Positions 10,501-44,340 of a stretch of 45,365 nt of DNA are shown piece by piece. The first letter of the stretch is position 1. Every line of letters begins with the position of its first letter. A program made the position numbers and the translations under genes. The notes under the pieces are model-generated. The model was not told where the DNA came from. It did not search any database and saw only the letters and a program-made list of their open reading frames with translations. Source of the DNA: an uncultured Oscillospiraceae bacterium (GTDB lineage Bacteria > Bacillota > Clostridia > Oscillospirales > CAG-382); assembly GCA_964646725.1 (NCBI GenBank), contig CAZYFX010000001.1:1-45365 (forward strand). The letters are read 5' to 3'.

Positions 10501-12509
10501 CCCGCGTTTGCTTTTACTTCGGCCGATACTTCAGTTGAATTTGAGTATTTTCCACCAACCTCAACATCGAAATTTTGACCTTTTTCTTCCGTTTTGTTTT
10601 TACTATCGTATGTAAGGGTAGTTGTTCCGTCGGTCGTGCTGGTAGATTCGTTTCCACCTGTAGACGATGTCACCAAATATGTATTGGAAGACGATGTCAC
10701 TAATTCTTCCGCTTCTTCCTTGGTTAATCCGTTTTCTTCTGCCCAGGTTTCGTTCACTTCGGTAACCTGTTCCCAGTCACTGGCCAACGTCCATGTGCTT
10801 GAGTCTGTAGTCGCCGTATTAATGCTTGTACTGATATTTTTCGCGCAGGTCTCCGTTGTGCTTAACTCTACGGTTTCGGATTTTTTCTGTGCCAATCCCG
10901 CTACCGCCTGAATCGTCCACACCGCCTCGGACATCGGAACATTTTCAATCGTTCCGAGTTCATACGCAAAGTAAATAACATTGTTGGTCGTATCTTCGCA
11001 AATGATCGGGTTCTTCAAGGGGACACTCTTGGCTAAATTCCGTTTGCTGGTCCAGTACGCATTCAGCGTAATGTCACCCACCGTTCCGGCCGGAATACTT
11101 GTTACCTCTTTACCGTCATCCGTATACCATCCCAAAAATACATAGTTGTATATTTCCGGATTCGGAAGATCCTTCAAGCCCTTGCTTACGGTAAAATGCA
11201 AATACTTTTCGTCGGTTATTTCTCCGAGAGGCGTTTGATACAGCTTATAGGTGACATCGTAAGATATTTCTTCCCAATGCGCATATAATTTATAGTTTTT
11301 CTTGCTACCTTGCGGAATTTCCGTGATCTTTACAAAATCCTCCGCCGACTGATTTAACGACCAGCCTCGGAATTTATATCCGTCTGCGGAAAGGTCTACC
11401 AGTTCGATCGAGCCATTGGCCGTATCTTCTTCGGTATACGTCTTTTTGTTCGGGTTACTTACGCCGACTGTTTCCAAATAAGCATTATTGATCACATATT
11501 CGATCATATATCCCGTCAAAGGAGCAATCTCCTGCGGTTTAACAAGGATTTCTCCGCAAACAGAGCACCGTTTACCTTCCGTATAGCCGACTTCCGTAGC
11601 CGTAGGCTTCACGGCAGGGATCGTTTCCTCCGTATGCCCCGTTGCCGCAATCACCGTATCCTCTTGTGTGATTTCGTTCTTAGCCGCCATATCGCCGAAC
11701 AGTTTGTTGCAGTCGTCGCACATCCAATAGGCTGTATGCCCTTTTTCCGTACACGTTGCTTTGACGGCCGCAACAGCCGTTAACGAGGTGTGCTTGCATC
11801 GAGGGGTATGCGGAAGCAGTTCCACATTGTACCCGCCCGCTCTGAAACGGCGAATCAAGGAAATATCAACGGTATTGATCTTGTCATCATCGTTTACATC
11901 TGCGGCATCTTCAAAGATTGTCACATCGTAGCCGCCGGCGCGGTATCTTCGCAACCACGTTATGTCGACCGTATTAACCGTGTTGTCCCGATTCACGTCT
12001 CCCGGTTTGTAATCGATTACGTTCACGTAACCGGACAGTACCTTCGGAGAGATCGGCCGGAAGTTTTCGTCCACAATGTCTCCGTCGTCGTACGATATGC
12101 TTACATTCAATTTGTCGTAGCGCTTCGTATCTTCACTGACAGCAAAAGTCAGCTTTAAAATCGTGCCGTCTTCGGTCGCGGGGGTCTCTTGACCGTCCCA
12201 CACAAAATTGCACGGTGACGTCAAGACACCCGGAGCGGTAAATACAAGCTCGGAAAAGGCGTCCCCCGCCGATACTTCGGTCAGTGTTAATTTCGGATCG
12301 TATTCCAATGTCAGAATTGTACCCATAATACCGGGGTTGTTTTCCACATTGATTTCTACTGTGACGCTCTGTCCCGGAGCGCCGTAATGACCGTCAACCG
12401 AAAAGGTCGGAACAGCCGACGTTTCCGTACCTGCGGCCAAAACCTGTACGGGCAGCACGGAAACAATCATCAGGACCGTAAGCAATGCCGCCATGATTCT
12501 TTTTGTCAT
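7560..12509 (-). CDS. Giant secreted cohesin-dockerin surface protein (1649 aa)
   Basis: GAGGAG RBS. Signal peptide MTKRIMAALLTVLMIVSVLPVQVLAAG. Domain order: cohesin, dockerin, Cys-rich module, Listeria-Bacteroides (InlB B) repeats (GYKFRGW, FLGWYT, GYTFNGWYT), a long S/T-rich region, BspA-type LRR (AFEGT..., FRNCKKLESV, AFSGCESLTKF, AFAGAPKL), then two near-identical 81/82-aa repeats. No LPXTG motif. Confidence 0.9.
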   Translation of the reverse strand: MTKRIMAALLTVLMIVSVLPVQVLAAGTETSAVPTFSVDGHYGAPGQSVTVEINVENNPGIMGTILTLEYDPKLTLTEVSAGDAFSELVFTAPGVLTSPCNFVWDGQETPATEDGTILKLTFAVSEDTKRYDKLNVSISYDDGDIVDENFRPISPKVLSGYVNVIDYKPGDVNRDNTVNTVDITWLRRYRAGGYDVTIFEDAADVNDDDKINTVDISLIRRFRAGGYNVELLPHTPRCKHTSLTAVAAVKATCTEKGHTAYWMCDDCNKLFGDMAAKNEITQEDTVIAATGHTEETIPAVKPTATEVGYTEGKRCSVCGEILVKPQEIAPLTGYMIEYVINNAYLETVGVSNPNKKTYTEEDTANGSIELVDLSADGYKFRGWSLNQSAEDFVKITEIPQGSKKNYKLYAHWEEISYDVTYKLYQTPLGEITDEKYLHFTVSKGLKDLPNPEIYNYVFLGWYTDDGKEVTSIPAGTVGDITLNAYWTSKRNLAKSVPLKNPIICEDTTNNVIYFAYELGTIENVPMSEAVWTIQAVAGLAQKKSETVELSTTETCAKNISTSINTATTDSSTWTLASDWEQVTEVNETWAEENGLTKEEAEELVTSSSNTYLVTSSTGGNESTSTTDGTTTLTYDSKNKTEEKGQNFDVEVGGKYSNSTEVSAEVKANAGIVETSGGVKNTSKFEISGSVGYGNYGNDSVSEHSGTDTTKVDTTVSSSTSTWNNSTSKQNTQAASQSSSVSKILSQVISTEKEYGQSYAYGGSGSEAFGMSNTSSKSVDTSSTVTYSTAKKTITTTEYSTDGKSDGCYRLVLAGTFHVFGIVGYDVATKSYFTYTYSVQDDKTYEFLDYAPDLAFNDCENGVLPFEIPYAVYEYVNSKTVITEGIEYTTNTADKTATITGYTGEDADVIVPSYVTSNGTSYRVTGIKAGAFEGTDVRAVILGDGIDEIPNGTFRNCKKLESVSGYFTKIGDEAFSGCESLTKFNLSSGVVHVGEDAFAGAPKLSVRALNEAKALKYAKEQLPNGSAAERKQYAKTITVDLLNAVASSGAKNIVVDISDTILDGDIVLDVPEMESFELQGGNKTYKNVQIKSEADLTALKEITIVNQDCVPLDLSSDNIKFDAVNIQNNGYVMLLPSSAPHITLIRDNIFKATNGEAVVVKNPVLESVKVDGAVGFMKIYGNVYLCGSITGEQHLTVNDGSIIQLTEDQFSGYVKGVCAVSFDPNGGSTATGSKNVYCGFTYGDLPTPTRTGYTFNGWYTSATGGTQVTAETKVTVAGRHTLYAHWTLNSYTASWSSSTGTSITVKRTSSPLAGASTGTISSGTTVLYYGDVLSVSYGANTGYTLASKGATSITVSRNITASDIYATANVNAYTASWSVSTGTSITVKRTSSPLAGASTGTISSGTTVYYGDVLSVSYGANTGYTLASKGATSITVTRNITENDIYATASVNYYQYSIVYKSVNGTSLGSDTATRAFGTTNTISAPAISGYDTPPAQTIAWDSTSKTITFDYTPTAVAFTSVSGQHYTSPITVHTAVAEYRNRTATSVEMRITWTDQITENYGYNYNSQRITATIGGVSSAEVIVVPWGTWSENIKTQPSKTASTAWVSVPVEAGTTSVSVSVYHRQTNYPGTTLDSSFTKTFTAAIPKY
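8157..8645 (-). repeat. Tandem in-frame duplication (243 + 246 nt) inside the giant surface protein
   Basis: YTASWS(S/V)STGTSITVKRTSSPLAGASTGTISSGTTV(L)YYGDVLSVSYGANTGYTLASKGATSITV occurs twice back to back. By hand alignment roughly nine of ten nucleotides are identical, with perfect runs of 27 and 38 nt. Confidence 0.9.
11817..12005 (-). other. Dockerin module (residues ~169-231 of the 1649-aa protein)
   Basis: Duplicated Ca-binding loop plus helix: GDVNRDNTVNTVDITWLRRYRAGG and ADVNDDDKINTVDISLIRRFRAGG. Confidence 0.85.
12018..12413 (-). other. Cohesin module A (residues ~33-164)
   Basis: PTFSVDG..GAPGQSVTVEINVENNPGIMGTILTLEYDPKLTL...GDAFSEL...CNFVWDG...DGTILKLTFAVS...YDDGDIVDENF aligns with the modules at 12535-12933 and 13858-14256 and matches the general cohesin pattern. 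Confidence 0.75.
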
Positions 12510-12531
12510 TATCTTATCTCCTCACTGTTTT

Positions 12532-13824
12532 TTATTGTACGGTGATCCTACCGCCAACAAGTGTAACATCCAATTCTTCAAAGTTTTCATCTACAAGATC
12601 TCCCGGCAAATAAGAGCATTCGATCTCGTATTTGTCTCCCTTGACAGCCTTGTCGGATACGGCAAACGTAAGTGTGAGTATCACTCCGTCTGTTTTCGCA
12701 GGCTCATCCAAACCATCCCAAACAAAATTGCAGTTTGTAACAAATTTTCCGGGCTTGGTCATTTCCAATTCTGAGAAAGCATCCCCTTTTTGCGCATCTG
12801 TCAAAGTCAGTGCTTCATCAAATCGGAAATTCAAAACCGCCCCGAGAATCTTCGGGCTGTTACATATTCTGATCGAAACCTCCACGCTTTCTCCCGCTTT
12901 CGCCGAAGCGCCGTCCACAACGATCGTAGGCTCGCTATAATTCGTGCTTTCCTTTCGATCTTCGGAATTGTTTTTGCCGGTTTCGTCGGTTTTGTCCGAT
13001 TCGCCTTTCACTTCATCCCATTCACCGATGTTTTCATCTTTGTCGATTTCGGTTTTCTGCGCGGGCTCTTTCCCGATATTGCCGCTTTCGCCCGACATTC
13101 CTCCGCCTTGTGTGTCTTCTTCCGAAGCACCACCGTTTTCCGTTTCTTCCGATTCATTCGGTACAACCGCTTCGGATATTTCGAAGAGCTTATCCAAGCG
13201 CATAAAGATCGTTGCCGCCTGCGCTCTTGTGGCTTTTCCCTGCGGTTCGAGCGTCGTTGCGGTCATGCCTCGGAGCAGCCCCTTTTCGTAAGCCCAGGAC
13301 ATCGCTTCCAGAGCATAGGTTCGGATTTTGTCACTGTCTTCAAACACGGATAAATCCGCCGTTTCCGCATTGGCGATCACATCCGATCTTTTGGTCTTCG
13401 CATACCGATACAAAATTGTAGCAAGCTGCTCTCTTGTTATTTCATCATTCGGCGCAAAGATATCTTGACCGTATCCGTTGACAATGCCGTTTTCGAACGC
13501 CCATTGTATCGGAGCATAATAATAATCCGTATTCTTCACATCGGTAAATCCGAGTTCGCCGCTCACCGCGGGACTTCCTTCCGATCGATAGATAACCGTC
13601 ACGATCATCCCTCGGGTGATGCTTCTTTGCGGTTCGAATGTCGTTTCCGTCATTCCGTTCATCAAGCCCTTGTTTCTAACAAACGCCACGCTTTCCGCAA
13701 ACCATTCGGTTGACGGGACATCCGTAAACCGAACCTCTGTACCGTCCGCAAAGCAAAGAAAAGCACTCATGCACACAAGCACGGTCACAACGGAAAATAT
13801 CCGCCGTTTCATTTTCTTTTTCAA
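12532..13824 (-). CDS. Cell-wall anchoring scaffoldin-like protein: signal peptide, 3 x SLH, acidic linker, C-terminal cohesin
   Basis: TTG start (alternative ATG at 13812). The three SLH repeats begin at FTDVPSTEWFAESVAFVRNKGLMNG, FTDVKNTDYYYAPIQWAFENGIVNG and FEDSDKIRTYALEAMSWAYEKGLLRG. A D/E/K/G-rich linker follows, then the cohesin. Confidence 0.9.
   Translation of the reverse strand: MKKKMKRRIFSVVTVLVCMSAFLCFADGTEVRFTDVPSTEWFAESVAFVRNKGLMNGMTETTFEPQRSITRGMIVTVIYRSEGSPAVSGELGFTDVKNTDYYYAPIQWAFENGIVNGYGQDIFAPNDEITREQLATILYRYAKTKRSDVIANAETADLSVFEDSDKIRTYALEAMSWAYEKGLLRGMTATTLEPQGKATRAQAATIFMRLDKLFEISEAVVPNESEETENGGASEEDTQGGGMSGESGNIGKEPAQKTEIDKDENIGEWDEVKGESDKTDETGKNNSEDRKESTNYSEPTIVVDGASAKAGESVEVSIRICNSPKILGAVLNFRFDEALTLTDAQKGDAFSELEMTKPGKFVTNCNFVWDGLDEPAKTDGVILTLTFAVSDKAVKGDKYEIECSYLPGDLVDENFEELDVTLVGGRITVQ
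12535..12933 (-). other. Cohesin module B (residues ~298-430)
   Basis: PTIVVDGASAKAGESVEVSIRICNSPKILGAVLNFRFDEALTL...GDAFSELEMTKPG...NCNFVWDG...DGVILTLTFAVS...GDLVDENF. Confidence 0.75.
13189..13731 (-). other. Triple SLH (S-layer homology) region
   Basis: Three ~55-60 aa repeats with the FxDV...W...(A/V)...G(I/L)(M/V/L)xG...F.P...(I/A)TR(G/E/A)(M/Q) pattern. Confidence 0.85.
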
Positions 13825-13854
13825 GATCGTACCCCCATGTTTTTTTTATCGCTT

Positions 13855-15564
13855 TTACCGAACCGTAACTTTTCCGGCTACCAAATCCAAATCGGTTGCC
13901 GCAAAATTGCTGTCAACAACGTCACCGTCCGCATAAGAACAGCTGATATTCAGTTCATCTCCCACTTCGGCCGTATCGGAAACCTTAAATACAAGCTTTA
14001 AGATTTCGCCGTCTTTGGTTGCGGGCGTTGCCTGCCCGTCCCACAAAAAATTGCAGGGCGACACCAACGAACCGGGCGGTGTCATCACAAATTCATCAAA
14101 CGCACTGCCGGCACTTGATGATACAAGCGTCAACTTGGGATCAAAATTAAAGGTAAGAATAGCACCAAACAGACCGGGATTTTTCTTGATTTCTACCGAA
14201 ACCTCCACCTGCTCGCCGACCCCGGCCGTTGCATTTCCCACAACGAAGGTCGGAGTTGTATATGTCACTTCGTTCTTTTGATACACGGCCGTTACGGTCA
14301 TACTTTCCGTTACGCGGTCAAACGTTTTATCCCAGCCGGTAAAGGTATATCCGTCTCGCGTGGGATTCGAAGGCGCCGTTGCCGTTTTACCCGAAGCGAC
14401 GGTATCCGTACCGAGAACCTTTCCGTCGTGATCTTTAAAGGTCACGGTATAGTAGGTGGTTTTGGCAAAATGAATCTCTGCATTGATAAGGGCATCATTT
14501 CCCGTTCCGATGGCATCCAAAAGGACTTTCCACTCTTCCTCGGAACCTTCATAGTAAACATCGGTCAAAGAGGTGCAGCCGTTAAATGCTTTGCGTCCGA
14601 TTTCCGTAACCGTCACGGGAACGGTTACGGAGGTAATCGCCTCGTTGGCAAAAGCGGAAGAATCGACGGATGTAACGGTGTCTCCGGCAGGAGAAAGTGT
14701 GGGAATGATCAGTTCCGTATCTGTGCAGGTTCCCATTCCTACAAGGCAGCAAGTGCCGTCGCCGTTCGAATCAAAGGAAAGCCCAACGGACTGCTTTTGA
14801 TAAACCGCCGTATAAACTTCATTGCGTGTTCCTACCGTAACGGAAGCTCGGGCGGTACGGGCAACCGTGTCACCGGCCTTATTTACCCAATGAGAAAAAG
14901 AGACACCCTTGTCATCGACGGTCGGAGCAATCAAATTTACCTTTTCGCTTTCGAGGTAAAGCCCATGATCGCATAAATCATCGATTACCCCTCCGACGAC
15001 CTTGACCTGATAAAAATCGTTTGTGGCAAGTCTTGCGGTTTTGTAGTCAAAATACTTTTGTGCATTCGCACCGTATACAAGCATGGAAGAAAGCAAGGTC
15101 TTGAGTGTTTCATCTGTCGAAGCTGTTGCCGTTTTTCCCAACTTGCTGTAAACGTATTCGAGAATACTGTACTTTTCAACCTTACTGTAATACGCTGTGC
15201 CATCTACAACCGTATACGCACGGGCATACACAACATCCGTCATTTGCTTTGCGGCAAGCGACGTATAGTCGTAGATTTTATAGGAAGCATCGTTTATTTG
15301 TTGAGTACCGACAGTTTTCAATTCAGCGACATGTGTTCCGTACAGATATTTATCGGAAGGCGCATCCCACAGCAAAAGAATTGTTTCTTCCGAACTGTCC
15401 GACGAAACGGCATATTTTATGCACACATTGTCTCGGAATGAAAGATTGCAATATTGAATGCTCATTTCGGGAGTTTCGACGGCTGCTTCGGCAAAAATCG
15501 CCACGCCGAGCACGAATACAGCCACAAACGACATTACCGCCAGTCTTTTTAATGTTTTTTTCAT
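13855..15564 (-). CDS. Secreted protein: unknown N-terminal domain, BspA-type LRR, Listeria-Bacteroides repeat, C-terminal cohesin (569 aa)
   Basis: GAAGGAGA RBS. Signal peptide MKKTLKRLAVMSFVAVFVLGVAIFAEA. LRR motifs SSAFANEAITSVTVP and KAFNGCTSLTDVYYEGSEEEW. B-repeat motifs YTVTFKDHDGKVLG and GYTFTGWDK. Cohesin at the C-terminus. Confidence 0.9.
   Translation of the reverse strand: MKKTLKRLAVMSFVAVFVLGVAIFAEAAVETPEMSIQYCNLSFRDNVCIKYAVSSDSSEETILLLWDAPSDKYLYGTHVAELKTVGTQQINDASYKIYDYTSLAAKQMTDVVYARAYTVVDGTAYYSKVEKYSILEYVYSKLGKTATASTDETLKTLLSSMLVYGANAQKYFDYKTARLATNDFYQVKVVGGVIDDLCDHGLYLESEKVNLIAPTVDDKGVSFSHWVNKAGDTVARTARASVTVGTRNEVYTAVYQKQSVGLSFDSNGDGTCCLVGMGTCTDTELIIPTLSPAGDTVTSVDSSAFANEAITSVTVPVTVTEIGRKAFNGCTSLTDVYYEGSEEEWKVLLDAIGTGNDALINAEIHFAKTTYYTVTFKDHDGKVLGTDTVASGKTATAPSNPTRDGYTFTGWDKTFDRVTESMTVTAVYQKNEVTYTTPTFVVGNATAGVGEQVEVSVEIKKNPGLFGAILTFNFDPKLTLVSSSAGSAFDEFVMTPPGSLVSPCNFLWDGQATPATKDGEILKLVFKVSDTAEVGDELNISCSYADGDVVDSNFAATDLDLVAGKVTVR
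13858..14256 (-). other. Cohesin module C (residues 437-569)
   Basis: TPTFVVGNATAGVGEQVEVSVEIKKNPGLFGAILTFNFDPKLTL...GSAFDEF...CNFLWDGQATPATKDGEILKLVFKVS...YADGDVVDSNF. It is closest to module A. Confidence 0.75.
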
Positions 15565-22011: not shown

Positions 22012-22040
22012 TTGAAAATTCGAAAAGAATGTGGTACAAT
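22012..22040 (+). promoter_or_regulatory. Sigma-A promoter with extended -10
   Basis: TTGAAA (22012-22017), 17-nt spacer including TG at 22032-22033, TACAAT (22035-22040). Confidence 0.6.
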
Positions 22041-22049
22041 AAATAAAAT

Positions 22050-22265
22050 TAAATATCGTACACAAAGTGTCGGCGATACCGTGCGGGTACCGTCGGTGAA
22101 AAGGGAACCCGGTGAGAATCCGGGACGATACCAGTCGCTGTGTGCACCGAAGAAGCGCGCCTTTCGACGAAAGTCGGTCATTGGGAAACCGAGAAGGCGG
22201 GTGCGCTTCGCCGAGCGTTTTGTTTTCGCTCGATACGGGTGTGAGTCAAAAGACCTGCTTTGATG
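22050..22265 (+). promoter_or_regulatory. Cobalamin (B12) riboswitch aptamer
   Basis: GGTGAAAAGGGAACCCGGTGAGAATCCGGGAC...AGTCGCTGT core. The central CATTGGGAAACCGAGAAGGCGG corresponds to the consensus GCCACTG...GGGAAGGC. B12 box GAGTCAAAAGACCTGC at 22243-22258. Boundaries are approximate. Confidence 0.8.
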
Positions 22266-22378
22266 TCCGAGCCTGGGTGGAGATGTTTTTTCATATGGCA
22301 CGGACAGATTCGGCGCCCCCGCAAAAATCTTTTTTGTAAGGGCTTATTTGTTATGCCGTTTTGTACATGCACGGGAAT

Positions 22379-22426
22379 AGCTGCCGTGGAGAGAAAAAGA
22401 AAACTCGCCGCGGCAGCTTTCGTTTT
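22379..22426 (+). terminator. Terminator-like hairpin in the riboswitch leader (candidate expression platform)
   Basis: AGCTGCCGTGGAGAG (22379-22393) pairs with CTCGCCGCGGCAGCT (22404-22418) with one mismatch and one G-U pair, followed by TTCGTTTT. Confidence 0.5.
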
Positions 22427-22491
22427 GCGCGAAAAAGCCGCGCCTGTTGATAAAAAGCCGTGCCTGTGCGCGGAAAAGAAAGGAAATCCAT

Positions 22492-25400
22492 ATGAAACAC
22501 ACAAACCGTTTGTCCGTTTGGGCGGCACTGCTTGTCTTATGCGGACTGTTTGCCGTATCGGTAAGCGCCGCAGGAGGCGTGCTCGGCGGAACGGGTACCC
22601 CATCCGACCCGTACACCATCGAGGACGCCGCCGATCTTGCGGCTTTCCGCGATCTGGTCAACGCCACGCCCTCCAGCACGGCACATGCCGTATTGACCTC
22701 GGACATCGATCTGGAAAACGAACCGTGGAAACGCATTTACCCCGATTCCGGCTACATCACCGAAGCGTATGCCGGGACGTTTGACGGCGACGGTCACACC
22801 GTCAAGGGTCTGTACATCAACGAAACGACCGCCGATCAGGGTCTGTTCGGCGCGATCGGTCTTGCAAATCTCGACGGCGAGACGGTCACGGCGGTCATCA
22901 AAAATCTGAAGGTTGAGGGCCGGGTTTCGTCGGAGGGCAACTACGTCGGCGGCATCGTCGGACGTGTGAACGCCGGCTCGGTCATCAACTGCTCGTTTGA
23001 CGGCTCGGTCACGTCCTCCAAAAAGAATGCGAACCTCGGCGGTATCGTCGGCTACATCAACGGCGATAAGCCCGAAAAGAAGCCGACCGTCGTGCTTTCG
23101 GGCTGCGTCAACCGCGCGGACGTTTCCTCGGCCGCAAGCGGTTCGGTGGCGGGAGGCCTTGTCGGATACGCCAAGTACACCGAAATATCCGACTGCTACA
23201 ATCTCGGAAGCGTTTCGGGTGCGAACCGAACCGGCGGACTCGGCGGTCAGTTGCAAAACAACGTCACCGCGCGTAACTGCTACACCGCAAACGGTTCCGA
23301 AGCGCTCGTCGGATTTCTGTACAGCTCTTCGTCGCTCACCTCCTGCTACGGACCGGGTGCTTTTAACGCCGGCGGTACGGGAACCGTCACCGACTGCGCC
23401 GTCATCGACCCCGATGGCATGGCGGGGCTTCTTTCCGCACTCGGAAGCGCCTACGTTTCGGATGAGCTCGGGGTCAACGGCGGCTATCCGCTTCTTGCGT
23501 GGGAAAGCGGCGCGGAGCCGACCCACAAAGAGCCGGAGCTTCTGCTGTCGGGCGCGGTCTTACGTTTGACCGCAGGTGAGCCGCATCCCACGACCACGCT
23601 GTCGGTCACCTATAAGGACATGGAGCCGACCGAGGTCGAATGGACGGTAACGGACGGCAAAGACGTTATCGAGCTGGTCGTTCCCGAAAATCCGAGCGAG
23701 ACGGATAGTACACGCATCGTCCGTGCGCTTGCTCCCGGAAAGGCAAATATTCTCGTACAAACCGCCGACGGTGCGTACAGCGCCGCTTGTGAGATTGTCT
23801 GCTATGCGCAGTTGACCGGTCGGCAGATCGCGGGCACGGCGGCGGTCGGCTTCACGGTCGAGGCCGATATCACGGTGCTCGGCGGAAAAAAGTACGACTA
23901 TGACAACTACCCGACGCTCGAATTTCAGTGGAAATATCTGACCGAAGAAGAATATTTGGGCGGTCAGACGGGCGCAAATTCCTATCACATCATCGAAAAC
24001 GCCGTGGGACGCACCTTTACCGTTCCCGCGTCGCTCGAAGGCTGCTATCTGTCCTACACCGTTTTTGTCGGCGGCACGACCGACTCTCCCTCCTCTCCGA
24101 TTCGCGTAAAATCGAATGCCGTCGGAAGCGTGGAGGCCGACAAAGCCGCGCTGAATCTCGACGCTTCGCTTCCCATCAAGGAAGAAACCGTTTTAATTCT
24201 CCCGACAGTGGGAGAAAACGGCTCGAAGATCGTTTGGAGCAGTGACAACGCTTCGGTCATCGACCCGACAAGCGGCGAGGTGACGCTTCCGAAAAAAGGC
24301 ATTGCCGCCGTCACCTTGACAGCGACCCTCTCCAAAGAGGACGCAAGCGCGGAAAAGACGTTTGTGTTCACCGTGTATTCGAAAGCGGCGATTGAGGACG
24401 AAAAGGCCGACAAGGCATCGCGTCTCGATAAGGTCATTCGTTCGCTCCGCAAAAACAAGACCTTCAAGCCGACTTACGGCAAGGATGTCAATGTAACGGA
24501 CATGCTCCTTTCCAAAATCGCCCTGCTTGACGAGCCGAGTATCACCGCCCGTATCACCGATATCGAAACAGTTTACGACGGTGCTTCGATCGACGAAAAC
24601 GGCGCGATCACTTATTTCTATGCCGACCCGCGCACCGCGCCCGCCCGTCACAGCGCGACGATTCGCGTGACCTTTGAGCTGTCGCTCGACGAGGTAAGCG
24701 ACACCTTTACCGCCACGGCCGTAATTCCGTGGGATGTCGAACGTGTCAAGACGCTCATGCGCGAGGAGCTTGTTGACAACACGCACATCGATGTCGATTC
24801 TCCTCTCACGGAAGCCGTCACGCTTCCCGCAAAAATCGACGAAAACGCCTGGGCACTTGTCTCCTGGACGTCCTCCGACCCGTCCGCGCTGTCGGTGGTC
24901 GAAGGAGCGGACAAGACACAGCCGATGAGTGCCGTTCCCCATCGCACCACGACCGCACGGCCTGCCACGCTGACGGCGGCGTATACCTTCGGCTTCACTT
25001 CGACCGACGAGCCGGAGATCGTGCTCTACAAGACCTTTGACTGCACGGTCGCCCCGCTCGACGAAGCGGACGCGGAACGTATTCGCGAAACGCTTGCCCG
25101 GAAACTGGAAAACGGCTTTGAAAAGGCGGGACTTCGCGATGCCTTCGGTACGTCTCTTACCGAAACGGACGGCGTGTACACCGTGAGCGGCGATATTCTG
25201 TACCCGACCACCGCCGATTTCGGTGTGGACGGCAAGGTCACGCCGGTCACCATTACGTCATCGAACGAAGCGCTCATCCTTTCGCCCGATGTGGCCAATG
25301 CGGCGCGCACCGAAGTGTACCGTCCCGCCGTCGGAGAAGATACGGCGCCGGTCACCGTCACCGTGACCTTGACCGACAAAGAAAGCGGACTGTCCGCTTC

Positions 25401-26991
25401 GAAAGAGTTGTCATTCGCCGTTCTGCCGTTGACCGAGGAGGAGATAGATGCCGAACGTGCGCTTCTTTCTCGCGTGTGCGAAGCCTACTTTGACGGCATT
25501 CGCGGCAAAAACAAGACGGCGGAAAACATTCGCTACGACCTTGCGCCCTTTAAAGAGATTTACGAACGGGACGGTGAACTCGTTTGGGTATACGACGCGA
25601 AAAACACGGTCGGTTACGGTGTAGTTCCGACGGCACTCGACGGTTGGGAAGAACTCGAAGCCTGGCGTTTGTTCCGCTCGTCCAATCCGAGCGTAATCAC
25701 CCACGAAAACCTGTTGGTCAGCTTACAAAACAAGGCCAAGTCCGTCACAATCGATTCGGTTCTGTCGAGTGAAACACTCGGACGCTACGGAAAGCTGTAC
25801 CGTGACGATCCCGAAACGTATGCAAAATATGCGGCACTTGCCGATTTGTACGCACGTCCCGTTTCGGCGGAACTTGTCGTGCGCGGAAAATACACTTCCG
25901 CAAGCAACACCGCCCCCACGCCGGTTGTCGAAACGGCGACCGTCACCTTTAACCTGAAAAACGGCAAAAAATCGCTTCTTTCCGAAACGGTGAAGGAATT
26001 GCCCGAGGGCACGACCGTGTTCGACGTGTTTAAAAAGGTATTGGAAGAAAACGGCTACACCTATGTCAACCGCGGCGGCTATCTGGCTTCGGTCACGACG
26101 GCCGACGGAACGGTGCTCGAGGAAATGGGCGCAGGGCCTTATTCGGGCTGGATGTTCAAGGTCAACGGCGAATTTCCGGACACCTATATGAGCGGCTGCG
26201 GCATCGAAAACGGCGATAAGATTCTCGTGTTCTACACCGAGGACTACAACAAGGAATTTGAACCGACCTCCTCCGACACTTCCACGCCGCGCCCGAGTAC
26301 CTCGACCGATGACGGTGCTTCGACCGACGGTAACGACAAAACCGAAGCCGACGAAAAAAACGAAACGGAAGATACGAAAAAGACGGAAGAAACGGACGAT
26401 TCGCAGAAAACCGACGAAACCGAAGCAACCGAAAGCGGACTTGACATTGCGAACTTTACCGACATAACGGAAGAACATTGGGCATTTGCCGCCGTTCGCA
26501 CAGCCTTGCAAAAGGGTCTGATGAACGGAATAAGCGACACGCTTTTCGCACCGGATGACACCTTGACGCGCGCCATGTTCGTCACGATCTTACACCGTGC
26601 CGAAGGAGCACCGAGCGCCGAAGCGGCCGTCACATTCACGGACGTTCCGAAAGACGCATGGTATGCGGACGCACTTACTTGGGCGATCGAACGCGGTGTG
26701 GTCAAAGGGGTGAGCGAAACGGAGTTTGCCCCGGAGGAATCGGTCACGCGCGAGCAGATGGCGTTGATGCTGTACCGCCATGCCGCCGAAAAAGCGGAGT
26801 CCGACGTGTCCGCACTTCCGTTCACCGACCTTGCGGACTGCACGGAGGAAGCGAAATGCGCGATTGCGTGGGCGTATGAAAAAGGCATCCTTCGCGGCAT
26901 GAGCGAGACGGTTTTTGCACCGAAGGAAACGGCAACGCGTGCACAGGCGGCAAAGGTGTTGACCGATTTAACGGAGCGGACACCTGCATAA
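22492..26991 (+). CDS. 1499-aa secreted S-layer-anchored protein: GLUG-type repeats, Ig-like modules, DUF4430 (transcobalamin-beta-like) module, 3 x SLH; putative surface corrinoid-binding protein
   Basis: Start chosen at MKHTNRLSVWAALLVLCGLFAVSVSA (signal peptide, AAAGGA RBS). GLUG-like repeats GLFGAIG, GGIVGRV, LGGIVGY, AGGLVGY and TGGLGGQ. Big_2-like VRALAPGKANILV. The DUF4430 and SLH modules are listed as separate features. Confidence 0.9.
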   Translation: MKHTNRLSVWAALLVLCGLFAVSVSAAGGVLGGTGTPSDPYTIEDAADLAAFRDLVNATPSSTAHAVLTSDIDLENEPWKRIYPDSGYITEAYAGTFDGDGHTVKGLYINETTADQGLFGAIGLANLDGETVTAVIKNLKVEGRVSSEGNYVGGIVGRVNAGSVINCSFDGSVTSSKKNANLGGIVGYINGDKPEKKPTVVLSGCVNRADVSSAASGSVAGGLVGYAKYTEISDCYNLGSVSGANRTGGLGGQLQNNVTARNCYTANGSEALVGFLYSSSSLTSCYGPGAFNAGGTGTVTDCAVIDPDGMAGLLSALGSAYVSDELGVNGGYPLLAWESGAEPTHKEPELLLSGAVLRLTAGEPHPTTTLSVTYKDMEPTEVEWTVTDGKDVIELVVPENPSETDSTRIVRALAPGKANILVQTADGAYSAACEIVCYAQLTGRQIAGTAAVGFTVEADITVLGGKKYDYDNYPTLEFQWKYLTEEEYLGGQTGANSYHIIENAVGRTFTVPASLEGCYLSYTVFVGGTTDSPSSPIRVKSNAVGSVEADKAALNLDASLPIKEETVLILPTVGENGSKIVWSSDNASVIDPTSGEVTLPKKGIAAVTLTATLSKEDASAEKTFVFTVYSKAAIEDEKADKASRLDKVIRSLRKNKTFKPTYGKDVNVTDMLLSKIALLDEPSITARITDIETVYDGASIDENGAITYFYADPRTAPARHSATIRVTFELSLDEVSDTFTATAVIPWDVERVKTLMREELVDNTHIDVDSPLTEAVTLPAKIDENAWALVSWTSSDPSALSVVEGADKTQPMSAVPHRTTTARPATLTAAYTFGFTSTDEPEIVLYKTFDCTVAPLDEADAERIRETLARKLENGFEKAGLRDAFGTSLTETDGVYTVSGDILYPTTADFGVDGKVTPVTITSSNEALILSPDVANAARTEVYRPAVGEDTAPVTVTVTLTDKESGLSASKELSFAVLPLTEEEIDAERALLSRVCEAYFDGIRGKNKTAENIRYDLAPFKEIYERDGELVWVYDAKNTVGYGVVPTALDGWEELEAWRLFRSSNPSVITHENLLVSLQNKAKSVTIDSVLSSETLGRYGKLYRDDPETYAKYAALADLYARPVSAELVVRGKYTSASNTAPTPVVETATVTFNLKNGKKSLLSETVKELPEGTTVFDVFKKVLEENGYTYVNRGGYLASVTTADGTVLEEMGAGPYSGWMFKVNGEFPDTYMSGCGIENGDKILVFYTEDYNKEFEPTSSDTSTPRPSTSTDDGASTDGNDKTEADEKNETEDTKKTEETDDSQKTDETEATESGLDIANFTDITEEHWAFAAVRTALQKGLMNGISDTLFAPDDTLTRAMFVTILHRAEGAPSAEAAVTFTDVPKDAWYADALTWAIERGVVKGVSETEFAPEESVTREQMALMLYRHAAEKAESDVSALPFTDLADCTEEAKCAIAWAYEKGILRGMSETVFAPKETATRAQAAKVLTDLTERTPA
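25936..26250 (+). other. DUF4430 module
   Basis: TVTFNLKNGKKSLLSETVKELPEGTTVFDVFKKVLEENGYTY...GGYLASV...YSGWMFKVNGEFPDTYMSGCGIENGDKILVFYTEDY matches the family pattern (...GW.y.VNG......g...y.l.dGD.i.w.Y). Confidence 0.75.
26455..26975 (+). other. Triple SLH region
   Basis: The three repeats begin at FTDITEEHWAFAAVRTALQKGLMNG, FTDVPKDAWYADALTWAIERGVVKG and FTDLADCTEEAKCAIAWAYEKGILRG, each followed by F.P....TR. Confidence 0.85.
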
Positions 26992-27031: not shown

Positions 27032-27124
27032 ACGGAGAAACCGTCGGTGCAATCGGCAGAATGCACAAATCGTTTGTGCATTCTGCCAAAAAACGGAAAA
27101 TCCGTTGCGAAAACGGGTATTCTA

Positions 27125-27133
27125 TGCTACAAT
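27125..27133 (+). promoter_or_regulatory. Extended -10 element (TGcTACAAT)
   Basis: TGCTACAAT lies ~60 nt upstream of the preferred ATG at 27195. I did not identify a good -35. Confidence 0.4.
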
Positions 27134-27194
27134 GACCTTGTATCGGAAATGCTTTCCGTACATACAAAAAAAGATAAGTAAGGATGAAGTCTTT

Positions 27195-30137
27195 ATGGAA
27201 AAGAAACCTTTGGAAGCGTATATGCTTGCCGACGACGGCTGCTACGGCATGACCTGGCATGAAGCGCCCGGCACCTGCTGGTGGTACGACGGACGCGGCG
27301 CGAAAGAAACGGAGCGCAACTTCGCTCCCTACTCCATCAGCAACGTCAAGGGCGAAGCCCCGACCGGCATGGTGCGCGAGCTTCGCAAAACGTCGGAAGG
27401 CGTGGTCACCGTGTTGGCAAGCGTCAACATTCGCGACGGTTTCGACGGATTGTTCGTGCGCCTGTACGACACCGACAAAAACGACGCCGCCTGCCTGTAT
27501 ACCAAAAACGGCGCTTACTATGCACTCGGCCGCAATCAAAAGGAAAAGCTCCTTTTTGAAGAAAAACGCCCGCTCGGCAAGCACATTTTCAAGCTCGTGC
27601 TCAATTTCGAAACGCACAAGGTTCGCTACTACGTGGACGATGTGTTCGGTGCGGAGCTTCCCATGACCGCGCGTCATATCAAATTCTATAAGATCGGCAC
27701 ATTCGCCGGCCACGTGATCGATGTAACGATGGGCGAAACGCGCATTCAGGCAAACTACGCCTTGCGCGAACGCTTTTCGCTCTATCTGCCCGGCACCGTT
27801 CCCGCCGGCTGGCAGAGCGACTGCACGGAGGACGCTTCCGTCGCAACCGACGGTGAAAACCTCGTTCTGACCGCCGAAAACGGCGCAAAGGCTTCCGTAT
27901 GCGCACCCGTCAAGCCGTGCACGGGCAAATACGCCTTCGAATCCTTCTTCTTCATGCCCGAGCTCGTCAAGGGCGCGGGGGTGGCGCTTCTCTCCGGAGG
28001 AAAGACCGCCTTTGAATTGACCACCGCCGACGGCTTCTTCTGTGTGGACGGAAAGACCGTCCGCTATGCACTTAACGAAATGTGGTACCGTCTGCGCTTT
28101 GAATTTGATACCGCCAAAAAGCAGGTGCTGTTGCGCATCAACGGCAAAAACATCGACACCTTCAAGCTTTCCGGCTCCGTCATCGACGGGATTCGTTTGT
28201 CGCTTGCTTCCGAAAACGCCGTTTTGAAGTGCGACCACATCCACCTGTTCCCCTTGATCGAATACGACGACTACTGCCCCAAGCCCAAGATTCCCAAGGG
28301 CATGAACGACTATGTGATCGGCATGAACATGTGCTCTCTGTGGCACACCGGTTCGCACATCGGTTGGGACTGCATTTCGGCCTACCCCGAGATCAAGCCG
28401 GTCATCGGCTACTATGACGAGGGGCTTCCGGAGGTAGCGGACTGGGAGATCAAGTTCATGCTCGAAAACGGTGTGGACTTCCAGCTGTATTGCTGGTATG
28501 CCAGCGAAAGCAACGCTCCCATGAAAACCACCGTGCTGTCCGAAGCCATCCACGACGGCTACTTCAACTGCAAATACAGCGACATGAGCCGCTTTGCTCT
28601 GCTGTGGGAGGCCGCCAATGCCGCACGTCCCGCAAGCAGTGAGGCGTTCCGCCGCTACTATGTGCCGTACTGGATCGAACAGTTCTTCAGCGATAAGCGC
28701 TACATGACCATCGACAACAAGGCGGTCATGGCCGTGTTCGGTACCTATCAGCTCATTCAGTCGTTGGGCGGCCCCGAAAACGTGCGCAAAGAGTTCGATT
28801 ACCTTGAGAGCGAGCTGAAAAAACTCGGCTACGATGGACTGATCGTCATGGGCTGCGGCGGCCCGAGCCAGGAACTGAAGGATTGCCGTTTTGATGCGGC
28901 GTATGCCTACAACTGGGCGAAGCAGGGCTACGATGCCGACTATACGGCGAACGCCATCCGCGTCCAACAGTCGCTCGACTATGTACACGTCGTGCCCACC
29001 GCGTCCACCGGTTTCAACAACGTGGCGTGGGCGGGAACCCGAAGCCCGAACATGACGGCCGAGGACTTCAAAAAGCTGCACACCGTTTTCCGCGACGAAA
29101 TGCTGCCGTCCTTCAAGGATAAGCCGTCATGGACGCACCGCTTCGTCATGATGTCCAACTGGAACGAATACGGAGAGGGCACCTACATCATGCCGTGCGA
29201 GGGCTTGAACGGCTTCGGCTATCTGAATGCCGTGCGCGACGTTTATACCAAGGAAAAGCCGCACAAGGACGATGTACCCACCAAAAATCAGCTGTCGCGT
29301 CTGTCCTATCTGTATCCGCAAGAGCGTCATATGCTCCGCACCGACGGCCGACTTCCCGCACGTGTGCCCGACAAGGTGCTGCGCACCGTTTCGCTCGGCA
29401 AGGGAAATTTGGAAGAGCATTGGAAAGCGCTCGGTTGCGACGCGGCCTACGAAAAGGGTGCCCTCAAGGGCGTAACGCATATTGCCGACGCCAACCTGTA
29501 TTCCACCGAACCGCTTGCCGTCTCCATGAAGAATGTAACGCATGTGCGCCTTCGCGCCAAGGTTTCCGTGCCGACGACCGTCGAGGTCTTTTATGTAACG
29601 GCCGAGCATCCGGACTTCGTTCAGCACCAGTCGTTCGGCGTAAGCTTAAAGCCGGGCGTGGAGGAAGCGATCTGCGCCGTTCGTCCGATCGACGAAACGA
29701 TCACGGGACTGCGTATCGACCCGGCCAGCGCTCCGAACGTCGAATACGAATTTTACGGAATCGATCTTATGCAGGACACCGGACGGCCGCTGTTTGAGTT
29801 AAACGGCGTCGAACAGCCCATCAATTCGCCGGTACAGCTCAAAGACGGCTACACGCTGTTCCCGTTCAATCCGTACCATGTGTTGGTGTATAAGTTGGGG
29901 CTTTATTACGAATACACGGCAACCGACAAGAAGCTGGCGTTCTATTCGAAGGACGCAAGCATCGTCTTTACGCTCGGTTCACGCAATGTCGTCATCAACG
30001 GTGAAAAGACGCTTTTGAACGCGCCGCTCGAATGCTGTGACGGACTGCCCATGCTGCCGCTCGAGGTCATGAGCCGCGTCTTCGGATTTACGTTTAAGTA
30101 TAAAGCGCCGAAGTTAACGATCACGACAAAAAAATAA
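27195..30137 (+). CDS. GH99/WbsX-like glycoside-hydrolase-family protein (980 aa) with unknown N-terminal beta-rich region and C-terminal copper-amine-oxidase-N-like domain; cytoplasmic
   Basis: Start chosen at MEKKPLEAY, downstream of the -10 element. IGYYDEGLPEVADWEIKFMLENGVDFQLYCWY and MSNWNEYGEGTYIMP resemble WbsX/GH99-like hallmarks (GYYD..., NEWGEG). No signal peptide. Confidence 0.7.
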   Translation: MEKKPLEAYMLADDGCYGMTWHEAPGTCWWYDGRGAKETERNFAPYSISNVKGEAPTGMVRELRKTSEGVVTVLASVNIRDGFDGLFVRLYDTDKNDAACLYTKNGAYYALGRNQKEKLLFEEKRPLGKHIFKLVLNFETHKVRYYVDDVFGAELPMTARHIKFYKIGTFAGHVIDVTMGETRIQANYALRERFSLYLPGTVPAGWQSDCTEDASVATDGENLVLTAENGAKASVCAPVKPCTGKYAFESFFFMPELVKGAGVALLSGGKTAFELTTADGFFCVDGKTVRYALNEMWYRLRFEFDTAKKQVLLRINGKNIDTFKLSGSVIDGIRLSLASENAVLKCDHIHLFPLIEYDDYCPKPKIPKGMNDYVIGMNMCSLWHTGSHIGWDCISAYPEIKPVIGYYDEGLPEVADWEIKFMLENGVDFQLYCWYASESNAPMKTTVLSEAIHDGYFNCKYSDMSRFALLWEAANAARPASSEAFRRYYVPYWIEQFFSDKRYMTIDNKAVMAVFGTYQLIQSLGGPENVRKEFDYLESELKKLGYDGLIVMGCGGPSQELKDCRFDAAYAYNWAKQGYDADYTANAIRVQQSLDYVHVVPTASTGFNNVAWAGTRSPNMTAEDFKKLHTVFRDEMLPSFKDKPSWTHRFVMMSNWNEYGEGTYIMPCEGLNGFGYLNAVRDVYTKEKPHKDDVPTKNQLSRLSYLYPQERHMLRTDGRLPARVPDKVLRTVSLGKGNLEEHWKALGCDAAYEKGALKGVTHIADANLYSTEPLAVSMKNVTHVRLRAKVSVPTTVEVFYVTAEHPDFVQHQSFGVSLKPGVEEAICAVRPIDETITGLRIDPASAPNVEYEFYGIDLMQDTGRPLFELNGVEQPINSPVQLKDGYTLFPFNPYHVLVYKLGLYYEYTATDKKLAFYSKDASIVFTLGSRNVVINGEKTLLNAPLECCDGLPMLPLEVMSRVFGFTFKYKAPKLTITTKK

Positions 30138-34033: not shown

Positions 34034-34062
34034 AGCGCAAAAGAAAGCGATAGGTGAAGCAA

Positions 34063-36051
34063 ATGCATGTAAAATTGGAAAAACACGGCGGTGCGGTCAA
34101 AATCAACATCGACGGCAAGCTGTTGGAGCCGCTGTCCTTTAAATCTTTCCGTCCGTCGGCGCGGAACATAAGCGATTTCTACAAGGCAGGTGTGCGCGTT
34201 TTTGACATTCTGACCGGCAGTATCAAATGTATGTTGGGCGTTCCGTATTCGCTGTACGGCGAAACATGGACGGACGACGGCGTGTTCGATTTCGAGCCCA
34301 TCGACCGTCAGATCGAGCTGTTTCTCGAAAACGCACCGGAAGGCTACTTTGCCTTGATGATACAGTTGGATACACGGGAATGGTATTGCAGGAAGCACGG
34401 CGTTCCGTATACCTTCACGAATCTGTCGCAGGAAATATGCGACCGTGCATGGCGCGACGCGGCCGGCGAATATCTCCGCAAGGTCATTCGTCACACCGAA
34501 GAAAAATACGGTGAGCGCTTCTACGGCTATTTTCTTCTCTGCGGCTATACGACCGAATGGTTCAGCCAATGCGATGACGAGGAAAGCCACCCGATTAAGC
34601 TTGCGGCATACCGTGAATACAAGAACGACCCGACGGCCGTCATTCCCGACAAGGCCGCGCGTGACATTCCGCGCGAACGCGTGTATCTCGACCCGACGGA
34701 AGAAAAGAATCTGGTGGAGTACCGCCGATTCCATTCCGATATCATCGCCGACGCCATCATCGAATTTGCACACATCGTCAAAGAGGAGACAGACTATCAC
34801 AAACTCTGCGGCGTGTACTACGGCTATCTGTTCGAATTGGAGGGCAAGCGTCTGTGGGATGCGGGGACGTTGAGCTACGAGAGAGTATACACCTGTCCGT
34901 ATATCGACATGATCTCCAGTCCGTCCTCCTATGCGCACCGCGCTTACGATGATGTAAGTGCCGTCATGGTTCCGAGCGATACGCTCGACCGTCACAACAA
35001 ACTGTACTTTTTGGAATTTGACCACATCACCCATGCGGCCCCCGCGTTCGTTCCCGACGGAAACGGCGTGCCCATCCCCGGCGCGGACAGTCGTTTCAAA
35101 TCGGAAGCCGAGACAATCGACGTTATGCGGCGCGACTTTATGTTATGCTGTGCAAGACGTTTGGCACTCTGGTGGTTCGACATGTTCGAGGGTTGGTTCT
35201 ATTCCGAATCCATGATGAACGAGATTGCGCATTTCATCCGCATTGCAAAGGACGTCACCGCGCGCGACGCGACCTCAAACGCCGAGGTCTGTGTCATTGC
35301 CGAGGGTGCATCACTGCTCTACGTCAACAAGCATTCCGGGGTCAACAATGCGTTGTTCTGCCGTCAGCGTGAGGGCTTGGGTCGCATGGGAGCTCCCTAC
35401 GACCTCTATTCGGTCTGCGATATCGAAAAAATCGATTTTGACCGCTACAAGCTTGTACTTCTGTTGGACGAATACAAGACCGACGAGACGGTGCGAAGCA
35501 TCATCATAGAGCGCGTCAAGCCCGGAAAAACGGTGGTCTTTTTCGGCCCGACGGACGGCATAACCGACGAAAAACTCGATTTGGCAAGAGCCGCCGAAAC
35601 GGTGGGAATGCATCTTTCGCAGGACAGCGGCGAAAACCGTGCGTCGGCATTCGGACGCACCTACGGAGACGGGCAGGTGCAAACGCGCATATTCTGCGAC
35701 GACACGAAAGCGGTCGCACTCGGACGCTTCGCGGACGGAAAAATCAGTCTGGCGCTCAGAGAAACAGACGGTTGCAAATGTATTTATTCGGCCATCGGCG
35801 ATTTGGACGGCGCGATTTTACGAGAGCTTGCGCGTCTTGCGGGAGTACACATTTACACGGAAACGTGTCCCGTGTACGTCAACACCGACATGATCGGCTT
35901 GTACATGAATCTCGAAGAAGCCGTGACGGTCACGCTTCCGCAGGACGGAACGTATTACGATGCGTTTACGGGCAAAGAGTACCGTTCGGAAAACAAAACG
36001 GTGGTTGTTCCGGTCGGAGAATATCGGTCGGTTCTGCTGTTAAGAAAATAA
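34063..36051 (+). CDS. Uncharacterised 662-aa cytoplasmic protein, possibly a GH42-like clan GH-A glycosidase
   Basis: AGGTGA RBS 6 nt upstream of the ATG at 34063 (the listed GTG at 34054 lies inside that RBS). YGETWTDDGVFDFEPIDRQIELFLENAP loosely resembles the GH42/GH-A N-terminal pattern. The family call is weak. Confidence 0.55.
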   Translation: MHVKLEKHGGAVKINIDGKLLEPLSFKSFRPSARNISDFYKAGVRVFDILTGSIKCMLGVPYSLYGETWTDDGVFDFEPIDRQIELFLENAPEGYFALMIQLDTREWYCRKHGVPYTFTNLSQEICDRAWRDAAGEYLRKVIRHTEEKYGERFYGYFLLCGYTTEWFSQCDDEESHPIKLAAYREYKNDPTAVIPDKAARDIPRERVYLDPTEEKNLVEYRRFHSDIIADAIIEFAHIVKEETDYHKLCGVYYGYLFELEGKRLWDAGTLSYERVYTCPYIDMISSPSSYAHRAYDDVSAVMVPSDTLDRHNKLYFLEFDHITHAAPAFVPDGNGVPIPGADSRFKSEAETIDVMRRDFMLCCARRLALWWFDMFEGWFYSESMMNEIAHFIRIAKDVTARDATSNAEVCVIAEGASLLYVNKHSGVNNALFCRQREGLGRMGAPYDLYSVCDIEKIDFDRYKLVLLLDEYKTDETVRSIIIERVKPGKTVVFFGPTDGITDEKLDLARAAETVGMHLSQDSGENRASAFGRTYGDGQVQTRIFCDDTKAVALGRFADGKISLALRETDGCKCIYSAIGDLDGAILRELARLAGVHIYTETCPVYVNTDMIGLYMNLEEAVTVTLPQDGTYYDAFTGKEYRSENKTVVVPVGEYRSVLLLRK

Positions 36052-44073: not shown

Positions 44074-44340
44074 ATGAAAGCAGTTATTACCGTTACCGCC
44101 AAGGACGCCAAGGGCATCATTGCCAAGGTCAGCACCCGATGCAGTGAATACGGCGCGAATATTGTCGATATCTCACAGTCGGTCGTGGGCGAATATTTTG
44201 CCATGATCATGCTGGTAGCCTTCGATGAGGGTGTAAACTTCGGCGAATTTGTGGATGCCATGAACACGCTCGGCAAAGAAAACAATCTTATTATCCAGGC
44301 CATGCATGAAGATATTTTCAACTCCATGCACCGCATATAA
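44074..44340 (+). CDS. ACT-domain protein (UPF0237 family)
   Basis: AAAGGAA RBS. MKAVITVTAKDAKGIIAKVSTRCSEYGANIVDISQSVVGEYFAMIMLV is the typical small ACT protein found upstream of UPF0210 genes. Confidence 0.85.
   Translation: MKAVITVTAKDAKGIIAKVSTRCSEYGANIVDISQSVVGEYFAMIMLVAFDEGVNFGEFVDAMNTLGKENNLIIQAMHEDIFNSMHRI

Follow-up and report, generated by a model that had tools for sequence, protein, structure and literature searches.

A cobalamin-riboswitch-controlled giant surface protein with a transcobalamin-like DUF4430 module in an uncultured Oscillospiraceae bacterium: a candidate for corrinoid capture at the cell wall

The gene, its leader RNA and the conservation of the riboswitch

The window analysed here is a stretch of 45,365 nucleotides of an uncultured Oscillospiraceae bacterium (contig CAZYFX010000001.1, assembly GCA_964646725.1), and the subject of this work is a gene on its forward strand which encodes a giant surface protein of 1499 amino acids (aa), lies behind a cobalamin riboswitch and carries a module resembling the beta domain of transcobalamin (TC). 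Gut communities take shape under competition for vitamin B12 and the other cobamides, and the extracellular capture machinery has been worked out for Bacteroides only; according to a review of 2026, the way in which Gram-positive Firmicutes capture cobamides outside the cell is "entirely uncharacterized" (PMC13616437). In this context, the window protein is a strong candidate for B12 capture outside the cell in Gram-positive gut bacteria. Its open reading frame (ORF) spans 22447..26991 (+), and the ATG at 22492 gives a product beginning MKHTNRLSVW. The features of the locus are the following:

22012..22040, +, sigma-70-like promoter: TTGAAA-17-TACAAT with extended -10 TG, 10/12 matches (a consensus match only)
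22048..22277, +, cobalamin riboswitch aptamer RF00174: 69.8 bits against a gathering score of 31.5, E 2.5e-15, model 1-189 of 189
22278..22491, +, expression platform: intrinsic terminator hairpin, U-run and ribosome-binding site (RBS)
22492..26991, +, coding sequence: 1499 aa and stop codon
22492..22569, +, signal peptide: residues 1-26, MKHTNRLSVWAALLVLCGLFAVSVSA followed by AG, read from the sequence
22570..23526, +, Glug-repeat beta-solenoid head: residues 27-345, from Pfam Glug and the AlphaFold2 (AF2) model
23536..25413, +, rod: two immunoglobulin (Ig)-like beta-sandwiches (residues 349-541), then four helix + beta-sandwich units (542-974)
25414..25905, +, conserved alpha/beta "pre-domain": residues 975-1138, about 160 aa, from A1/A2 conservation and the AF2 model
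25933..26250, +, DUF4430 / transcobalamin-like SLBB beta-grasp module: residues 1148-1253, from Pfam and Foldseek, the candidate corrinoid-binding domain
26251..26451, +, low-complexity linker rich in T/E/D/S/K: residues 1254-1320, 67 aa, acidic, by composition
26452..26988, +, three SLH repeats: residues 1322-1362, 1382-1422 and 1444-1485, Pfam SLH 118.2 bits
27003..27031, +, intrinsic terminator after the stop codon: ACGGAGCG...CGCUCCGU and UUUUU, -19.8 kcal/mol

The gene is a self-contained single-gene unit, composed of a promoter, a cobalamin riboswitch with its terminator, one ORF and a terminator, and it is monocistronic since a second terminator lies 3' of the stop codon. It is flanked by a CNNM/CorC gene on the opposite strand and by a WbsX-like gene with a promoter-like site of its own. 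Transcription is predicted to start where the aptamer begins; the aptamer is the sole Rfam match across the window and ends 214 nt upstream of the ATG, on the same strand as the gene. An earlier sequence-only reading of this DNA had taken the riboswitch for the only element between promoter and start codon; the aptamer is indeed there, but so are a 10-bp GC-rich terminator hairpin at 22380-22417 (GCUGCCGUGG...CCGCGGCAGC, -23 kcal/mol, z = -4.75), a U-run directly 3' of it (22418-22426, UUUCGUUUU) and an RBS, AAAGGAAA, at 22479-22486. A GC-rich hairpin followed by a U-run recurs in the orthologous leaders (-17 to -31 kcal/mol), with stem sequences which differ between lineages, and fits transcription attenuation. 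A further motif, YRYGGRAAWA, lies just 5' of the 5' arm of the terminator (leader ~22366-22392, e.g. CACGGGAAUAGCUGCCGUGG) and is also found in the leaders of the orthologous loci L001, L002, L003, L005, L007, L010 and L013; it may be part of a switching helix or of a kissing loop.

The protein belongs to a nameless family, which comprises about 90 clusters when grouped at 90% identity and shares the Glug, aBig_2, DUF4430 and SLH architecture at 1430-1600 aa and down to 35% identity. NCBIfam has no curated family for it, the only match being that of the NEAT-LRR model NF033190 at the SLH region. Full-length orthologues were found in gut Clostridia, mostly Oscillospiraceae, among species-representative genomes. 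A survey covered about 18 distinct loci with orthologues (L010/L011 counted together), and RF00174 at or above the gathering score lies directly 5' of the gene and on the same strand in 13 of them, namely L001-L005, L007, L008, L010/L011, L013, L014, L020, L055 and L081; these orthologues are 34-61% identical (best tblastn segment), with the L081 protein, P0007, at 60%. Sub-threshold matches occur at the expected place in L085 and L021. The flanking genes differ between loci, so that the riboswitch travels with the gene, and a chance pairing is excluded because it recurs in 13 further loci. This conservation bears out the claim that the gene stands under a B12 riboswitch. Among cultured organisms, Flintibacter muris DSM 110149 holds a confirmed orthologue with its riboswitch (L011); Pseudoflavonifractor phocaeensis (L026) holds a partial relative only, with no DUF4430 module or riboswitch detected.

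The transcobalamin-like module and the architecture of the protein

Pfam PF14478 (DUF4430) matches residues 1173-1249 with 35.9 bits against a gathering score of 23.8. The sequence-only reading had placed the module at 25936-26250 (residues 1149-1253), quoting as its end YSGWMFKVNGEFPDTYMSGCGIENGDKILVFYTEDY (residues 1217-1252), had considered it homologous to the beta domain of TC and intrinsic factor (IF), and had proposed a structural comparison of that interval. The homology and the shared fold are supported computationally. From an alignment of 32 family sequences, AF2 modelled residues 975-1262 with a predicted local distance difference test score (pLDDT) of 94.2 and a predicted template modelling score (pTM) of 0.88. 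When this model was compared with the Protein Data Bank (PDB) by means of Foldseek, the best 18 matches were TC (human, bovine and rat), haptocorrin (HC), IF and the bacterial structure 3u7z, all with probability 1.0; the template modelling (TM) score of the module was 0.64-0.70, normalised to single-domain targets, and its beta-grasp matches the beta domains of TC, IF and HC. The same Pfam family, the same fold (TM 0.64-0.65 to the isolated TC beta domain, 5no0 and 5np4), a hairpin with a conserved aromatic residue and an extracellular location are thus common to the module and the animal carriers. Identity over the Foldseek-aligned stretches is about 12-25%, and the window module, a putative corrinoid binder, is unlike its animal counterparts in being embedded in a 1499-aa, wall-anchored bacterial protein.

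According to Burroughs, Balaji, Iyer and Aravind (2007; PMC1796856), the transcobalamin-like SLBB clade is marked by a beta-hairpin which follows the helix as an insert and bears a conserved hydrophobic residue, stacked against the base of cobalamin. Such a hairpin is present in the model of the window protein, with the helix at model residues 202-212 and the strands at 216-220 and 223-228. Its Y1197 is invariant in 32/32 family sequences and in 14/14 diverse modules, and aligns with TC "SGPYLTSV" in a profile alignment, which is not a coordinate superposition; S1218-G1219-W1220 and V1224 are also invariant. Moreover, the isolated TC beta domain does not need the alpha domain to retain cobalamin or to bind cobinamide (PMC5599065), a lone beta-type module being for this reason a credible primary corrinoid site, and the most favourable interface in TC is that between cobalamin and the beta domain (PMC11107200). 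The closest solved bacterial structure, 3u7z (RUMGNA_00854 of the gut Firmicute Ruminococcus gnavus), matches in Foldseek with TM 0.69-0.70 and a root-mean-square deviation of 3.8 A; unlike the window module, it is a 96-aa stand-alone DUF4430 protein, a structural-genomics entry with no ligand assigned. As for sequence searches, the module alone gave noise only against the PDB sequences and one match in a 5.8-billion-protein collection (a word-index effect), while its profile retrieved 4,833 clusters, mostly of small proteins, unnamed or called "DUF4430 domain-containing protein". An exact look-up of contigs encoding the window protein returned no record.

The most conserved part of the window protein is the pre-domain, a mixed alpha/beta fold in the AF2 model with no PDB match in Foldseek. 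It is predicted to pack rigidly against the DUF4430 module, as the pTM of 0.88 suggests, and it stands where TC has its alpha domain; that it aids ligand binding, replacing that domain, is speculative. With the pre-domain as a family marker, a search of 1.84 billion representatives yielded 342 clusters, 255 of them at E ≤ 1e-10; it is carried almost always by proteins of 1000-4500 aa and is duplicated in some members. Among the 146 representatives listed, DUF4430 directly follows it in 95, usually at a distance of 10 residues or less, and SLH is present in 56.

Related genes elsewhere associate the module with cobalamin riboswitches and with transport. In L017 (10532-11486), RF00174 at 124.5 bits lies directly 5' of a gene for a 183-aa protein with an N-terminal membrane anchor and a stand-alone DUF4430, beside an SLH-less giant homologue. 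The DUF4430 of this protein is a distinct subtype (SGWMYxVNxxxPNxx...GDxIxWxY), and the same subtype lies 3' of SLH-less giants in L008 (6321-7394) and L021 (10171-11079). In L087, RF00174 heads an operon composed of a 1341-aa surface protein with Big_3 and DUF4430, a small DUF4430 protein, ABC ATPases and the S-component of an energy-coupling factor (ECF) transporter; the layout of L088 is the same, with CbiQ. DUF4430 proteins are paired with prenyltransferase-like (TC-alpha-like) proteins in L089 and L090, and TC-alpha-like toroid domains are carried by the relative P0021 and by neighbours in L081, L089 and L090. Furthermore, a 328-aa protein composed of a signal peptide, DUF4430 and three SLH repeats is encoded directly 5' of the giant orthologue in L085 (6676-7662), with a 131-nt sub-threshold RF00174 match (22.2 bits, 7761-7891) between the two. 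Given this minimal protein, display of DUF4430 on the wall looks like the core function. A separate observation concerns L046 (1695-10683), where RF00174 (54.9 bits) lies 5' of a gene whose 2796-aa SLH product also carries CHB_HEX_C_1, Fn3_assoc and Flg_new domains and three Glug heads; Pfam finds no DUF4430 in this protein, and the family hidden Markov model (HMM) gives a weak match only (E 6e-4, residues 1742-1840).

Regarding the remaining architecture, the protein is, as had been proposed, a secreted one of 1499 aa, with an AXA-type cleavage read between VSA and AG. The profile searches suggested in the sequence-only reading matched DUF4430 and SLH and, marginally, Glug (two repeats, 21.5 bits against a cut-off of 20.5, PF07581 being precomputed in many family members), but not Big_2; the Ig-like part consists of aBig_2 (two matches, 73.7 bits in Pfam, corresponding to two of the four helix + beta-sandwich units) and of unassigned beta-sandwiches. 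The AF2 model of residues 27-974 had a pLDDT of 86.2 and a pTM of 0.45 and showed the solenoid as stacked short strands at about residues 96-301 (model ~70-275), with 10-residue blocks mostly at pLDDT 69-96. Foldseek returned for this part generic multi-Ig rods only (protocadherins, the S-layer protein SbsC and a phage-tail protein; TM 0.08-0.13). A second corrinoid-binding domain in residues 27-974 was sought as well but did not turn up, there being no Pfam match for one and only these generic rods in Foldseek.

Wall anchoring, also claimed beforehand, agrees with the signal peptide, the SLH triplet and the presence of a second SLH protein in the window; the C-terminal triplet would hold the protein non-covalently on the wall. 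The gene csaB, for the pyruvylated secondary cell-wall polymer, does not lie within the window. On the other hand, the proposal of a long stalk holding the module at or beyond the S-layer has to be reversed, because the SLH anchor is C-terminal and no further folded domain separates DUF4430 from the linker, which makes the module wall-proximal. From the wall outwards, the order is SLH, the 67-aa linker, DUF4430, pre-domain, rod and Glug head. Judging from this order, the module would stand at the base, near wall and membrane, with the approximately 1100 N-terminal residues projecting outwards.

About 950 of the 1499 residues form a rod with a beta-solenoid head, a design typical of adhesins and S-layer proteins, and for this part a spacer or adhesin role is most plausible. 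The whole protein could, in the extreme, be a B12-starvation-induced adhesin or an S-layer-associated structural protein, in which the Glug head and Ig rod would do the main job by binding mucus, particles or B12-producing neighbours, and DUF4430 would be structural or bind glycans of wall or capsule. The presence of SbsC, cadherins and a phage tail protein among the Foldseek matches would agree with this, as would the sugar- and polysaccharide-associated members of the wider SLBB superfamily (PMC1796856) and the existence of Glug and SLH proteins without DUF4430. Nevertheless, the TM-scores of the rod are very low, and the module matches TC, IF and HC and not polysaccharide-export proteins, besides having the hairpin insert with its invariant aromatic residue. 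Moreover, small anchor-and-DUF4430 proteins which are controlled by the riboswitch (L017) or encoded in ECF operons (L087, L088) are hard to square with adhesion, and we consider this alternative unlikely.

An example of a Glug and SLH protein without DUF4430 comes from L022 (3401-8228), in the Oscillospiraceae metagenome-assembled genome JAISLF010000075.1, where two divergent genes encode Glug surface proteins, one with Big_2-like modules (-) and the other with three SLH repeats and no DUF4430 (+). Each lies behind a match to the molybdenum cofactor (Moco)/tungsten riboswitch RF01055, at 5657-5803 (+, 58.8 bits) and 5372-5520 (-, 38 bits). This second cofactor riboswitch hints that the Glug/SLH scaffold may be a general riboswitch-controlled surface platform.

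The proposed role and what weighs on it

Taken together, these data make it fairly probable that the window protein is a B12-repressed, wall-anchored corrinoid-capture protein. Cobalamin riboswitches in general are OFF on cobalamin. We infer, along these lines, that high intracellular cobalamin would switch the leader OFF, most likely by terminating transcription within it, while under scarcity the 1499-aa protein would be made and retained on the wall. The cassette of pre-domain and DUF4430 would then bind corrinoids near the wall and concentrate them at its surface, handing them to a membrane transporter encoded elsewhere (of the ECF-CbrT or BtuFCD type), and rod and Glug head would project outwards from it.

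Several results weigh against this proposal. With regard to regulation, no antiterminator pairing rose above shuffled controls in single-sequence folding or in a comparative duplex test, so that the OFF direction rests on the general behaviour of cobalamin riboswitches; furthermore, the orthologous loci L006, L009 and L083 gave no RF00174 match even at a permissive threshold. With regard to the ligand, the protein has no Prenyltrans or SQHop_cyclase match in Pfam and therefore lacks the alpha6/alpha6 toroid, being for this reason no TC-type two-domain binder. This toroid gives TC its picomolar affinity, and the affinity of the window protein may be modest in its absence. Searched against the PDB sequences, the profiles A2 and A4 of the module gave no significant match to TC, so that the link to TC rests on the Pfam model and the fold. 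In the literature searched, no experimental work on bacterial DUF4430 proteins was found, and hence no ligand measurement. With regard to the genetic context, the window contains no gene for B12 transport, biosynthesis or B12-dependent enzymes, and neither a transporter gene nor a B12-dependent gene adjoins the orthologues examined. If the DUF4430 module is a corrinoid site, as proposed, its affinity is probably below that of TC.

Also on the opposing side, 3u7z was deposited as a "putative metal binding protein", and a preprint on Lactobacillus sakei places heme, by modelling, in a TC-like alpha/beta pair encoded in an ECF operon (10.1101/864751). Together with the ECF-type heme uptake of Staphylococcus lugdunensis (PMC7299338), they would suit a module which binds heme or metal, the riboswitch then reflecting a metabolic link other than corrinoid uptake. 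Nevertheless, the heme proposal for L. sakei rests on docking alone, cobalamin and cobinamide are the only experimentally defined ligands of the fold (PMC5599065), and the cobalamin riboswitch is conserved 5' of the window family and of other DUF4430 genes, which makes heme or metal very unlikely as the ligand.

The genetic context bears on another possibility, a surface reservoir or competitive sink, which would hoard corrinoids or deny them to others; this would be similar to the reservoir role reported for BtuJ1 in Bacteroides. The window gene is monocistronic, no transporter gene lies near it or near most orthologues, and neither it nor its orthologues lie in an ECF/CbiQO-type operon, their neighbours being unrelated; an extracellular reservoir has also been proposed for Bacteroides BtuJ (bioRxiv 10.1101/2025.07.01.662609; PMC13616437). 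Nonetheless, more distant relatives with the same module lie in ECF transporter operons (L087, L088), and SLH-less giants are accompanied on their 3' side by small DUF4430 partners with a membrane anchor (L008, L017, L021), both facts suggesting a relay towards the membrane. The reservoir overlaps with the capture role proposed above, differing in the last step only, and a protein confined to storage or denial seems rather improbable to us.

Comparison with known systems and the surroundings of the gene

The idea that Gram-positive bacteria scavenge B12 at their surface with TC-like proteins is not new here, as it dates from 2007, when Burroughs, Balaji, Iyer and Aravind predicted this role for TC-like SLBB proteins of low-GC Gram-positives bearing a signal peptide and an anchor (PMC1796856). 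Those proteins resemble the window protein in their signal peptide, surface anchoring, Ig-type fusions, small SLBB paralogues and predicted scavenging of B12 or its precursors, and the relatives in L087 and L088 correspond to the CbiQ/CbiO-type operons of that paper; no experimental characterisation of these predicted scavengers was found in the literature searched. In contrast, SLH anchoring, a Glug head, a cassette with the pre-domain, riboswitch control and a monocistronic gene distant from transporters are not described there. What is new, then, is the conserved riboswitch control of a stand-alone gene, the SLH anchoring, the cassette of pre-domain and DUF4430, the giant Glug/Ig superstructure and the wall-proximal position of the module.

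The sequence-only reading had seen in the protein a wall-anchored analogue of the BtuG-type lipoproteins of Bacteroides. The analogy holds as far as the predicted function is concerned, since BtuG, BtuH and BtuJ (PMC10404256, PMC8941943, PMC13616437) are surface accessory binders under B12-responsive control which capture cobamides ahead of the transporter. It does not extend to homology: neither Pfam nor Foldseek (residues 27-974 and 975-1262) relates the window protein to BtuG, BtuH or BtuJ, and it has no lipobox. The folds concerned (a beta-propeller in BtuG, a C-terminal novel fold in BtuH and DUF4465 in BtuJ) are unrelated to it, and these proteins, unlike the window protein, are lipid-anchored on the outer membrane and feed the TonB-dependent BtuB. 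BtuH was also considered as a homologue and ruled out, its B12 domain being a novel fold without DUF4430 (PMC8941943).

A parallel in design is offered by the SLH-anchored, heme-binding NEAT surface proteins of the Bacillus cereus group, such as BslK. These also show a small cofactor domain on the wall by means of an SLH triplet, to catch a scarce tetrapyrrole that is then passed to a membrane transporter, but their ligand domain is NEAT for heme, their regulation is by iron and Fur and not by a riboswitch, and they are much smaller.

A bolder version of the capture role would regard pre-domain and DUF4430 as a new two-domain corrinoid clamp, with an unrelated alpha/beta domain in place of the alpha-toroid, and the Glug head as docking on B12-producing cells or on host HC or IF. 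It would amount to contact-dependent corrinoid piracy, a monoderm counterpart of the BtuG/H/J relay, and we hold it to be unlikely.

The 342 clusters with the pre-domain are widespread in Oscillospiraceae and other gut Clostridia, so that the family represents a concrete candidate flagged by a riboswitch, and its small domain (about 105-280 aa) is amenable to expression and titration. If experiments bear out the proposed role, DUF4430 would gain its first experimentally tested bacterial function, the proposed bacterial origin of the animal B12 carriers would be supported, and it would be clear how corrinoid uptake by monoderm bacteria begins at the outside of the cell.

As for the rest of the window, three ORFs have no Pfam match at E ≤ 1e-4: 985-2490 (-, 500 aa), 34054-36051 (+, 665 aa) and 44173-45330 (-, 384 aa). 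The gene directly 3' of that of the window protein, 27105-30137 (+), encodes a protein of 1010 aa, in which a WbsX-like glycosyltransferase region is combined with a C-terminal domain of the Cu_amine_oxidN1 type (copper amine oxidase N-terminal-like). The first ORF of the window, 4-912 (+), has this C-terminal domain too, and a WbsX/Cu_amine_oxidN1/SLH giant lies near the orthologue in L083. Finally, a cellulosome-like surface-display gene cluster occupies 7560-15564 (-). It encodes a 1648-aa protein with dockerin, BspA-type leucine-rich repeats (LRR) and Listeria-Bacteroides repeats, an anchoring protein with SLH and cohesin (12532-13824), and a protein with cohesin, LRR and Flg_new (13855-15564), from which it follows that the organism uses both SLH and cohesin-dockerin display.

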